From Escherichia coli (lineage in GTDB: Bacteria; Pseudomonadota; Gammaproteobacteria; Enterobacterales; Enterobacteriaceae), in the NCBI RefSeq assembly GCF_003334305.1, contig NZ_QOWS01000019.1: a stretch of DNA of 64,000 nucleotides, one strand, 5' to 3'. The notes under the pieces were generated by a model. The model ran no database searches. It saw only the letters and a list, made by a program, of their open reading frames with translations, and was not told the origin of the DNA. Both the position numbers and the translations under genes were made by a program. Positions 17,649 through 18,660 of the stretch are shown here, piece after piece (the stretch's first letter is position 1; every line of letters begins with the position of its first letter).

Positions 17649-17689
17649 ATATTGAAAAGGCCGCTGCGAAAATCCCTCCCGCAGCGGCC
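17649..17689 (-). terminator. Rho-independent terminator downstream of the HEPN-motif gene
   Basis: Inverted repeat GGCCGCTGCG/CGCAGCGGCC (10-bp stem, 11-nt loop) followed on the minus strand by TTTTCAATAT. Confidence 0.5.
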
Positions 17690-17718
17690 TCTTTAGCATA
17701 ACGTCATTATGCGAACCA

Positions 17719-18660
17719 TCACTTAATGTTCTTCTCGCATTTTAAGAGAAATAGTAAATTTGTAGCAGTAAGATGAAGCATATAGCTTACCAATTCTTCC
17801 GGAACCTCTTTAATATCAGCTCCTTGCCCATGACCTGCATTTTTGTTTCTGATGGTTGGAATTCCTGTTTCCAGCATTGTTTTCAGACTTGTGAACTGGC
17901 TTTGTAAATATGCCGGAATTAAATTTTGACTTAAACAGCTATTTATTAGTTTTGATGCTGTATCATTAGGACTATATTTCCAGTTATTCTTATCATGTAT
18001 TGCTTTCATTATACTTTCAAATGATTTCAGACAATCATTTAGACATTCTTTATAACGCTTATGCCTGTAATGCTCATGCGCAGCAAGGAATTCATCATTG
18101 GCGCCTTCAAACAAGGGTTCTCCACTTAAAAGAATCAGGGTTGGCTTTACGACATCAGCATGAATCAATTGAGAGTCTATCCTTATTATCTCTTCAGATT
18201 CAAACTGATAACCAACCCCATGTTCTCTAAACCTTTCATTTAGTTCAATAACTGCATCTCCAGGACTTTGACTTGTTATGTCTTTGAATTCATAATGGTT
18301 TTTCGCAACGTGGCTCACTAGTATCTGGAAGCATATTTCTATGAAATCTAGGCATTTCTCTGTATTTCTCTCTTTAAGGAAAAAGTCGACAAGAGCGTCA
18401 AAGTCATTCTTTGCAAATTCCTTCAAAGAAAAAACACCATATTCCTTAGAAAGTATCTCATGGATATATGCATATACTTTGTCAGCTTCATTTCTATACG
18501 ATGTGTAGCGTTCATTAGAAGAGGGGAAGCCGATAGAATCAGTTATTATTTTAATTATTTGCACCCTGAGTGCATGTGGAATATTGTTATATTGATATAC
18601 GTCATTTACTTCGCCACGAATTTTTCTTTGTCTCTTAGAATAAATATTAATAATTGCCAT
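17719..18660 (-). CDS. HEPN-motif protein, possibly AbiJ-like abortive-infection/defence protein (candidate)
   Basis: 313-aa ORF, about 33% GC by eye, with an R-x5-H motif (IRNKNAGHGQG) near the C-terminus in a predicted helical region; own terminator; flanked by IS remnants. Family assignment is by motif only. Confidence 0.45.
   Translation of the reverse strand: MAIINIYSKRQRKIRGEVNDVYQYNNIPHALRVQIIKIITDSIGFPSSNERYTSYRNEADKVYAYIHEILSKEYGVFSLKEFAKNDFDALVDFFLKERNTEKCLDFIEICFQILVSHVAKNHYEFKDITSQSPGDAVIELNERFREHGVGYQFESEEIIRIDSQLIHADVVKPTLILLSGEPLFEGANDEFLAAHEHYRHKRYKECLNDCLKSFESIMKAIHDKNNWKYSPNDTASKLINSCLSQNLIPAYLQSQFTSLKTMLETGIPTIRNKNAGHGQGADIKEVPEELVSYMLHLTATNLLFLLKCEKNIK

Follow-up and report, generated by a model that had tools for sequence, protein, structure and literature searches.

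The gene at positions 17719-18660 (minus strand) of the window, i.e. of the whole 64,000-nucleotide stretch of Escherichia coli DNA that was analyzed, probably encodes a single-polypeptide, AbiJ-type abortive-infection protein. We assign a probability of about 0.6 to this reading, in which the defence role is deduced from family profiles, a fold model, a conserved predicted active site, the mobile lone-gene contexts of the family, and the defence genes that occur in the same cargo slot. A transporter IS of ISKpn21-like type, which inserted next to a Xer site of the plasmid, carries the gene as its passenger. The passenger is an ordinary member of its family; the cargo slot in which it resides is the new part.

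An earlier note on this DNA had described a 313-aa ORF on the minus strand that was far more AT-rich than its surroundings, and both statements were confirmed. The ORF listing gave an ORF of the STM4504/CBY_0614 family with this length and these ends (stop codon 17719-17721 included), starting with ATG and preceded by a GAGG Shine-Dalgarno sequence 8 nt upstream of the start. The GC content between 17600 and 18800 was 0.345-0.37 compared with 0.42-0.54 on both flanking sides. The product is identical to WP_000974762.1, and the ORF showed 100% identity to the annotated CDS in pECOS88.

The protein consists of two domains. Residues 1-180 (18121-18660, minus strand) form an alpha+beta N-terminal domain, AbiJ_NTD4, which is presumed to be a sensor or regulator, and residues 181-313 (17722-18120, minus strand) form a C-terminal HEPN domain (Pfam DUF7014/Abi_C). 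In profile searches, Pfam AbiJ_NTD4 matched residues 5-174 with an E-value of 2.6e-24, whereas the earlier note had recognised no match for the N-terminal two thirds. DUF7014 (PF22809) matched residues 182-312 with an E-value of 8.8e-63. Precomputed annotation of homologues, including a cluster representative with 99% identity, gave Abi_C (PF14355), and from these two annotation outputs DUF7014 and Abi_C now appear to be equivalent entries. The NCBIfam model NF046078 (STM4504/CBY_0614) aligned over its positions 1-280 of 281 and scored 431.7 bits, well above its cut-off of 150. Both features of an AbiJ-family HEPN protein were found, namely a significant match to the family profile and one of the domains NTD1-5 (here AbiJ_NTD4) fused upstream. 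The family comprises 2634 cluster representatives at an E-value of <=0.001 and 887 at <=1e-30, and homologues also occur in phages (PHROG 20794). Neither a single-sequence search nor a profile search of the PDB rose above chance-level matches, and no convincing structural relative of the N-terminal domain was found, which counts against the abortive-infection reading. Mean identity to the query was 40% for the N-terminal domain and 53% for the HEPN domain. The N-terminal domain is thus only moderately more variable than the HEPN domain, unlike what would be expected of a fast-evolving sensor of phage proteins, and this too counts against the reading.

The combination of AbiJ-NTD4 with an AbiJ-family HEPN domain was defined on CBY_0614, and the family was predicted in 2013 to consist of phage-defence RNases (Anantharaman et al., PMC3710099). 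The window gene has the same two-domain architecture and matches the same family models, is 37-73% identical to the sampled relatives, and shows no structural difference from them. PMC3710099 makes no mention of an IS passenger slot. The family is known from computation only, and our literature search turned up no AbiJ-NTD4 protein that had been studied experimentally. The novelty implied by the earlier note has to be given up for the gene itself, since the architecture was described in 2013 and the gene already carries a name in RefSeq.

An R-x5-H motif near the C-terminus had been noticed before and proved to be well conserved. The sequence IRNKNAGHGQG corresponds to residues 270-280. Within it, R271-N-K-N-A-G-H277, encoded at 17830-17850 on the minus strand (R271 codon 17848-17850, H277 codon 17830-17832), is the predicted Rx5H catalytic motif with a polar N after the R, as judged from homologue conservation and its position in the model. 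Among 68 homologues with 37-73% identity, R271, H277, and G278 were each kept in 67 and N272 in 66 (RNx4HG). With such conservation, the motif cannot be fortuitous. The codons for E215-S-I-M-K219 (18004-18018, minus strand) specify the Ex3K motif of HEPN helix 2, again assigned by conservation and by helix 203-224 of the model. E215 was retained in all 68 homologues, and position 219 was K in 65 and R in 3.

The fold model had a pLDDT of 89.3 and a pTM of 0.64. It places the catalytic motif between helices 250-265 and 288-310, and helix 203-224 carries Ex3K. Both this pTM and the pLDDT of loop 270-275, which was below 50, count against the abortive-infection reading, since the active-site geometry and the contact between the two domains are merely predicted by the model. 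In HEPN domains the motif follows helix 3 and Ex3K lies in helix 2 (Anantharaman 2013, PMC3710099). The model shows the up-and-down bundle of four helices, interrupted by an insert between the second and the third, that characterizes the superfamily. In HEPN proteins the Rx4-6H motif, with a polar residue behind the R, is placed where helix 3 ends or where the loop to helix 4 begins, and R271-N272-x4-H277 correspondingly follows helix 250-265. The conserved acidic residue of helix 2 is E215, in the typical Ex3[KR] setting (K/R219). The HEPN domain therefore retains the full predicted catalytic signature, RNx4HG after helix 3 plus Ex3K in helix 2. The earlier note had assigned the protein to HEPN/AbiJ and proposed profile and fold searches against these families as a check; the searches were positive, and the assignment stands on DUF7014, NF046078, the position of the R-x5-H motif behind helix 3, and the Ex3K of helix 2.

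These residues also bear on a reading in which the HEPN domain is not toxic but binds or processes RNA, or acts as a regulator, in a housekeeping or virulence-related function of the ColV plasmid. Some HEPN proteins are indeed not toxins, for example MtlR and the nucleotidyltransferase substrate-binding domains, and the gene is flanked by the ets efflux operon on one side and by other ColV loci on the other. However, HEPN families without catalytic activity no longer possess the Rx4-6H motif (Anantharaman 2013, PMC3710099), which is nearly invariant here, and the neighbours of the gene are not fixed, as it moves among phages, integrons, ISs, and islets. A non-toxic role is accordingly regarded as highly improbable.

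A direct sequence link to lactococcal AbiJ was rejected. In a PADLOC search with an E-value limit of 1, no AbiJ model matched the ORF product, and the only match was to the candidate family PDC-S32 (4e-9, residues 11-226). No Lactococcus match was obtained when the protein was compared with 72,556 plasmids by tblastn. Neither a curated AbiJ defence model nor detectable similarity to the lactococcal protein was thus found by these two methods, and both outcomes speak against the abortive-infection reading. AbiJ of Lactococcus lactis (Abi-859) is likewise a single-gene Abi protein with a C-terminal HEPN domain, of the family that bears its name (Pfam Abi_C), but its N-terminal domain is of another type and its similarity to the window protein is too low for tblastn or the PADLOC models. 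Lactococcal AbiJ, a precedent for the proposed role, confers phage resistance, and escape mutants map to an SSAP; such a phenotype is on record for that protein and not for the window gene. A further precedent, HepS from the Salmonella prophage Gifsy-1, is a single HEPN protein that senses the siphovirus tail tip and cuts tRNA anticodon loops (PMC13043305). It is without AbiJ_NTD4, and trigger and substrate are established for HepS only, not for the window protein.

A sensor-plus-HEPN-toxin model has been proposed for the CBY_0614 architecture (Anantharaman 2013, PMC3710099). Within an abortive-infection mechanism, the window protein would be made at a low level and kept inactive by its N-terminal domain, which would serve as both sensor and brake. 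An incoming phage or another replicon would supply a signal, perhaps a protein or a nucleic-acid intermediate, that engages the N-terminal domain. The HEPN domains would then assemble as an active oligomer and cleave RNA, be it tRNA, rRNA, or mRNA, by the metal-independent HEPN mechanism, for which HEPN endoribonucleases usually form a dimer with a composite active site, so that translation would halt, the infection would be aborted, and the cell would be sacrificed. If the protein is active, it would matter for the treatment of APEC and ExPEC strains with phages and for their phage typing, and a first phenotype would be available for a family of this size.

No partner gene had been seen beside the ORF, and a single-gene arrangement had been proposed. 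Both observations were upheld here and in four unrelated contexts of homologues. In Vibrio cholerae, the homologue is a lone superintegron cassette; in a Salmonella inovirus prophage, it is the last gene before attP; another homologue is located in an integrase islet beside proA. The tailed Clostridium phage phiCp-A carries a homologue as well. The gene family is found almost only as mobile cargo, and a partner gene recurs in no context. Taranis, an Abi_C protein reported among anti-phage systems (bioRxiv 10.1101/2024.07.02.601686), is likewise encoded by a cassette of the V. cholerae chromosomal integron. The absence of a conserved neighbouring ORF across contexts argues against a toxin-antitoxin system of type II or III. 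A type III antitoxin or other RNA partner was rejected as well, there being neither meaningful tandem repeats nor an RNA family match in the 5' region; an Rfam search of 17300-20600 yielded nothing except the IS200-derived STnc490 and one sub-threshold match.

The gene had been described as lying between IS remnants. IS sequence does surround it, but it sits inside one insertion sequence of 2801 bp (17598-20398, minus strand), a transporter IS of the IS1202 family (ISAba32/ISAjo2 subgroup, ISKpn21-like). Alignment of the inverted repeats identified TGT...ACA ends and imperfect repeats of about 50 nt at 17598-17647 and 20350-20398. The element is flanked by a 5-bp target-site duplication, ATGTT, with its left copy at 17593-17597 and its right copy at 20399-20403 (neither assigned to a strand). 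These ends and 5-bp duplications were seen in three target contexts, with ATGTT also at locus L016 and GACTT at L015, L018, and L020. The transposase is a pseudogene (18895-20284, minus strand) composed of the ORFs 19418-20284 and 18895-19281 and split by an 11-nt deletion near 19425. Deletion and frame change became evident upon alignment to the intact 466-aa transposase of the relative at L015, which matches NF033594 (ISNCY family) with 477 bits against a cut-off of 250. A Klebsiella plasmid carries the 2.8-kb unit at 99.2% identity.

A plasmid dif-like Xer site, TGTGCGCACAA tctatc TTATGTTAAAT, with two mismatches and a 6-bp spacer, directly follows the right duplication at 20404-20431 (plus strand). 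[quoted passage not shown] This dif-like site is the insertion target of the IS. A left end 5 bp from the XerC arm has been described for ISKpn21 (PMC10132070; bioRxiv 10.1101/2022.12.17.520857). The window element thus combines the three marks of the ISAba32/ISAjo2 subgroup of IS1202, i.e. a family transposase, a 5-bp duplication, and a distance of 5 bp to the XerC arm. With tISKpn21 and the other transporter ISs of the IS1202 family it also shares the 466-aa transposase (intact in the L015 relative) and a passenger downstream of the transposase. It differs from ISKpn21 in having only about 69% DNA identity over the transposase, and it was left unnamed by the annotation pipeline.

Because the IS has been immobilized by the transposase frameshift, the gene now spreads with the plasmid and not by transposition. 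A copy was present in 383 of 5426 complete E. coli genomes. The carriers are ColV/IncF virulence plasmids, and identity among the copies is 99% or higher. Such a plasmid with an intact predicted abortive-infection RNase is thus present in about 7% of complete E. coli genomes; our literature search found no paper treating the gene as a trait of ColV/IncF plasmids. The conservation of the ColV copies could reflect recent spread rather than selection, as the IS is dead and the copies are nearly identical. An alternative is that the gene hitch-hikes on ColV plasmids without current function, as the intact yet silent or inert remnant of a dead IS that is retained only owing to the youth of the plasmid lineage. 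The frameshifted transposase and the near identity of the copies, which fits recent clonal spread, would agree with this, as would the lack of a consensus promoter in a scan of the region between transposase and ORF and the interruption of some gene copies by IS1. On the other hand, the ORF has stayed intact beside a decayed transposase and is preceded by a good Shine-Dalgarno sequence. The strong conservation of the predicted catalytic residues in a large family further indicates that the protein is functional as a family. An inert relic is for these reasons held to be improbable.

The gene had been credited with its own terminator. A strong hairpin (17655-17694) does follow the stop codon, and the fold of 17640-17725 had a dG of -36 kcal/mol (z -5.4 versus shuffles); however, it belongs to a 71-nt module common to unrelated cargos. 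The hairpin was not flagged by the consensus terminator scan because its T-run is too short. The module, the 3' flank of the cargo slot, spans 17648-17718 (no strand assigned) and contains the hairpin and a dif-like XerC/XerD site. This site, GGTTCGCATAA tgacg TTATGCTAAAG (17691-17717, minus strand), departs from the dif arms at three positions, has a spacer of 5 nt, begins 2 nt past the stop codon, and forms the 3' boundary of the slot. It and the target site of the IS are the only two dif-like sites in the window, and none was found in 20 shuffles. The 71-nt flank was 78-96% identical beside unrelated cargos (L014, L016, L018, L020, and L022-L026) and in inoviruses.

In the intact version of this flank (L002), single-stranded DNA folds into a hairpin pairing two inverted dif-like sites (z -7.0). 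The inovirus relatives contain the same arrangement, a hairpin flanked by two inverted dif-like sites whose single-strand arms pair around a bulged centre. We take this folded pair to resemble the attP of CTXphi. The 71-nt flank of the window is the remnant, one half, of a folded filamentous-phage attP. In contrast to CTXphi-type attP sites and pdif modules, the window keeps only the inner dif-like site and the hairpin, and the other slot boundary is not recognisably Xer. The inverse pair of Xer sites that defines a dif (pdif) module is consequently absent, the 3' boundary alone being dif-like. Gene cassettes bounded by Xer sites are described for Acinetobacter plasmids (PMC10132070; bioRxiv 10.1101/2022.12.17.520857).

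Homology between ISs with different cargos stops at 17716-17721 and resumes at 18720-18722. The latter boundary marks the conserved 5' flank of the slot (18722-18771, no strand assigned), which consists of CCGCGAAGCGGTTCGGGGTTCTGTGACACCCGAA followed by a variable hairpin. The motif occurred once in the window and not at all in shuffles, and compensatory changes at four pairs were observed in the third hairpin. No match to the flank was found in Rfam. An interpretation of the motif as a second Xer site was rejected, as it did not fit the dif arms within four mismatches. The motif also turned up in IMG/VR, in 24 contigs with lengths of 4.7-14.6 kb, 14 of which encode Zot homologues.

In related ISs the same two flanks bracket SduA (Shedu; 5.8e-115), a ThsB-like TIR protein (2e-48) together with PDC-M50A, or a SIR2-like PDC-S25 protein (1e-81). 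Proteins annotated as Doc-family toxin and as TIR-domain proteins occupy the same slot, and inoviruses carry the two flanks around unidentified genes. The slot is not exclusively defensive, because PADLOC gave no match for eight cargo proteins from six motif-bearing IMG/VR contigs. Nor was there a PADLOC match for an ASCH-domain protein, for cargos of 128 aa and 350 aa, or for a 210-aa ORF beside an ISKpn21-type transposase. The notion of a purely defensive slot was therefore rejected.

From these data we tentatively propose, as one possibility, that the gene is an interchangeable cartridge. Its slot would correspond to the moron position of dif-integrating filamentous phages, between the folded attP and the structured 50-nt motif, and would have been captured inside ISKpn21-like dif-hunting ISs. 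It may shuttle single-gene or small immune and toxin effectors (AbiJ-type HEPN, Shedu, TIR, SIR2-like, Doc-family) among Enterobacterales plasmids and chromosomal dif regions. The two fixed boundaries could be the sites of exchange, either through Xer-related recombination or through homologous recombination that uses the conserved flanks. The published passengers of dif-hunting IS1202-family elements are hypothetical proteins of unknown function (PMC10132070; bioRxiv 10.1101/2022.12.17.520857), whereas the window passenger is identifiable and related copies hold Shedu, TIR, and others between the same boundaries. Our literature searches found neither a description of such a cargo slot nor a paper dealing, for Enterobacterales, with defence cargo that is carried by ISs or linked to Xer sites. 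Identifiable passengers, several of them known or candidate defence genes, are swapped between boundaries that are also found in filamentous-phage genomes. This links three mobility systems, i.e. Xer-integrating phages, dif-targeting ISs, and conjugative plasmids, which could constitute one route by which immune genes spread.

A further explanation is that the HEPN toxin serves its carrier (filamentous phage, dif-integrated element, IS, or plasmid) rather than defence against lytic phages. It might exclude rival filamentous phages or other elements competing for the Xer site, or penalise loss of the carrier. The slot belongs to dif-integrating inovirus genomes, with a homologue last before the attP of the Salmonella inovirus, and it also accommodates the gene annotated as Doc-family toxin. 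GNAT/DUF1778-type toxin-antitoxin pairs adjoin the IS in Klebsiella plasmids. Moreover, mutants that escape lactococcal AbiJ are affected in a single-stranded DNA annealing protein, as could be the case if single-stranded replication intermediates were sensed. Nevertheless, classical post-segregational killing is left without a visible mechanism because neither an antitoxin gene nor a repeat-RNA antitoxin is present. We consider a carrier-serving module unlikely, given that the gene also occurs in a tailed phage of Clostridium and in integron cassettes without an Xer link, and that the slot is shared with known defence genes (Shedu, TIR, SIR2-like).

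The ORF listing places an open reading frame of 313 amino acids at 17719-18660 on the minus strand, with a GC content of 0.345-0.37 as opposed to 0.42-0.54 on either side. Residues 270-280 of the encoded protein read IRNKNAGHGQG. A low-GC gene carrying an R-x5-H motif, as proposed in the earlier note, was confirmed by the ORF listing, the GC profile, and conservation in 68 homologues. The view that the N-terminal two thirds of the protein match nothing did not hold, because Pfam detected AbiJ_NTD4 at residues 5-174 (2.6e-24). The remainder was covered by DUF7014 (residues 182-312, 8.8e-63). 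The profile searches agreed with one another: NCBIfam NF046078 matched with 431.7 bits (cut-off 150), PHROG 20794 (function unknown) matched at 2.2e-139, and the sole PADLOC match was the candidate family PDC-S32 (4e-9, residues 11-226). Precomputed annotation of homologues in a large protein collection was PF14355 (Abi_C) plus PF18863. The family comprised 2634 cluster representatives at an E-value of <=0.001 and 887 at <=1e-30. The 313-aa gene is an ordinary member of this known family, the function of which is predicted only. Anantharaman et al. (PMC3710099) put forward a model in which the AbiJ N-terminal domains detect invaders and hold a suicidal HEPN RNase in check; the idea of a HEPN-type abortive-infection gene is therefore supported and was already in print as a prediction.

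An AlphaFold2 model derived from 68 homologues (pLDDT 89.3, pTM 0.64) had as structural relatives 1ufb (12.2), the sacsin HEPN domain (11.8), 2hsb (11.6), 1wol (11.1), 4nqf (10.8), AbiA (9.9), LsoA (9.3), a HEPN toxin (9.0), Csm6 (7.9), and HepS (7.5), and Foldseek was in accord with this list. Profile and structure searches favored HEPN/AbiJ, supporting the HEPN/Abi interpretation as a prediction. Catalytic HEPN domains are marked by Rx4-6H after helix 3, a polar residue following the arginine, and Ex3[KR] in helix 2 (Anantharaman 2013). All three hallmarks were found in the 313-aa protein and were nearly invariant among the 68 homologues: R271 and H277 were each present in 67/68, N272 in 66/68, and E215 in 68/68, and position 219 was occupied by K in 65 and by R in the other 3. 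Loop 270-275 had a pLDDT of <50 in the single-chain model. Judged from the conserved hallmark residues, the HEPN domain is apparently catalytically competent, with a putative composite active site.

The window represents a ColV-type IncFIB plasmid, with the gene located downstream of a MacAB-TolC-like efflux operon. The gene region is 100% identical in pECOS88 and hundreds of further plasmids, in which the gene is WP_000974762.1, annotated as "STM4504/CBY_0614 family protein." A survey of 5426 complete E. coli genomes found the window allele in 383 of them, in 388 plasmid and 9 chromosomal places, each with an identity of >=95%. Damaged copies were seen in some E. coli records (hits H32, H33, and H116 and protein P0016); in P0016 (364 aa), helix-turn-helix domains are fused to the C-terminal 217 residues of the 313-aa protein, and further copies are interrupted by IS1.

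Homologues occur in unrelated settings: one forms a single-gene cassette of the V. cholerae superintegron, others adjoin an integrase near proA in Enterobacteriaceae, and still others are the final gene of a Salmonella inovirus prophage or are carried by a Clostridium phage. No neighbor gene recurred across these contexts, and neither a repeat RNA nor an Rfam element was found in the 5' region, in keeping with the earlier claim that a partner gene is lacking. Further conflict-system genes lie close to some homologues: a 1279-aa YobI-type ATPase is encoded near the integrase islet with the homologue (L012, 12210-16049), and a DUF4145 cassette directly follows the Vibrio homologue cassette (L008, 9077-9832). 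Anantharaman et al. (2013; PMC3710099) classify DUF4145 as HEPN-like. Our data show a sensor-like domain joined to an apparently competent HEPN domain in a protein that lacks a partner gene and travels as mobile cargo. If it works like HepS and as in the 2013 model, the protein would be autoinhibited, an invader-derived trigger would activate it, and the HEPN oligomer would cut RNA and cause translation arrest.

The gene had been placed between IS remnants. The IS context was correct, but the gene is in fact a passenger inside an IS1202-family element (17598-20398). This element has imperfect inverted repeats of ~50 nt with TGT...ACA ends (17598-17647 and 20350-20398 by inverted-repeat alignment) and is flanked on both sides by the 5-bp duplication ATGTT; the duplication at related copies elsewhere is GACTT. 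A Klebsiella plasmid copy of the IS unit is 99.2% identical and has an intact 466-aa transposase, which scored 477 bits with the ISNCY model NF033594. The window transposase is frameshifted by an 11-nt deletion near 19425. [quoted passage not shown] Only two dif-like XerC/XerD sites were present in the 64-kb window (17691-17717 and 20404-20431), versus 0 in 20 shuffles. Insertion beside such a site has been published for the ISAba32/ISAjo2 subgroup within the IS1202 family, in which ISKpn21 is a "transporter IS" with a hypothetical protein of unknown function as passenger (PMC10132070; bioRxiv 10.1101/2022.12.17.520857). DNA identity between the window element and ISKpn21-type transposase genes was ~69%. 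On a Klebsiella plasmid, a 210-aa ORF (L015, 8897-9529, plus strand) adjoins an ISKpn21-type transposase and is transcribed in the opposite direction; it matched nothing in PADLOC or NCBIfam and is probably the passenger of that IS. A truncated IS200 copy is located at 17300-17589. Its tnpA frame ends at ~17589, 9 nt short of the IS1202-family element, and its 5' end matches the Hfq-binding sRNA STnc490 of Rfam (90 bits, gathering score 56).

When related copies were compared (window IS; L014-L021, L030-L032), homology on the transposase side started at 18720-18721 and homology on the other side ended at 17716-17721, with different genes between these two boundaries. The low-GC segment delimited in the earlier note coincides exactly with the cargo of this slot. 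Other cargos were Shedu SduA (5.8e-115), a ThsB-like TIR protein with PDC-M50A (2e-48 and 8e-32), three small proteins, one of which had a CxxC zinc-ribbon match (NF047912, 7.6e-16), and a SIR2-like PDC-S25 protein in Yersinia rohdei (1e-81), near which a transposase was not detected. An ASCH-domain protein (without PADLOC match), a Doc-family toxin, and another TIR protein were assigned by annotation only, and a second STM4504-family allele (DNA identity ~71%) by annotation and BLAST. We found no earlier description of the slot in the literature. Passengers are listed as hypothetical proteins in the papers defining the IS family; here they are identifiable and swapped between two fixed boundaries.

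The 3' flank of the slot (17648-17718) contains a hairpin and the second dif-like site, GGTTCGCATAA tgacg TTATGCTAAAG (17691-17717, minus strand), which is situated inside the IS, 2 nt past the passenger stop codon, and has an unusual spacer of 5 nt. The segment 17640-17725 folds with a dG of -36 kcal/mol (z -5.4 versus shuffles), and a simple terminator scan misses the hairpin because its T-run is short. Of the terminator previously ascribed to the gene, the hairpin after the stop codon is real, but it belongs to an inovirus attP-like module. In Salmonella inovirus prophages, the 3' module recurs behind the homologous gene with 94% identity and is complete there, with a second, inverted dif-like site beyond the hairpin (L002-L005, 8935-9029). 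As single-stranded DNA, the two sites of the complete module pair around a bulged center (z -7.0), a design resembling that of the CTXphi attP. The 5' flank (18722-18771) is a conserved structured element. Two of its hairpins do not vary, and the third has a different sequence at different loci, 4 of its pairs showing compensatory changes (alignment A3). The 5' flank had no Rfam match; it may function as a DNA site, as an RNA element, or in phage replication origin or packaging signaling.

IMG/VR contigs of 4.7-14.6 kb hold both flanks, typically ~400-1500 nt apart. The 5' motif was present in 24 contigs, 14 of which had Zot homologues, and some motif-bearing contigs adjoin perfect dif sites. 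In Rosenbergiella, Erwinia, and Yersinia, both flanks were also found near the chromosomal dif site. The "terminator" module and the 5' motif belong to genomes of dif-integrating inoviruses (L002-L005, L033-L056, L022-L026), and we read the slot as the place where a family of such phages carries its moron, later enclosed in a dif-hunting IS. PADLOC matched none of eight cargo proteins from six motif-bearing IMG/VR contigs; the slot is therefore not exclusively for defense. Mutants escaping lactococcal AbiJ have been mapped to a single-stranded DNA annealing protein. Given this and the proposed origin of the slot in filamentous phages, the 313-aa protein may act in competition between elements instead of classical anti-lytic defense.

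On the Klebsiella plasmid L018, the Shedu passenger is flanked by two copies of the 33-nt 5' motif in direct repeat (1635-1667 and 2587-2619), which hints at cassette-type insertion instead of plain homologous exchange. In IncF/IncHI plasmids of Klebsiella, Enterobacter, and E. coli (L018-L021 and L032), the IS or the slot was found in the same setting each time, with a thermonuclease-family gene on one side, a GNAT/DUF1778 toxin-antitoxin pair on the other, and a dif-like site alongside. This suggests that IS/slot elements have been drawn more than once to a conserved Xer site of these plasmids.
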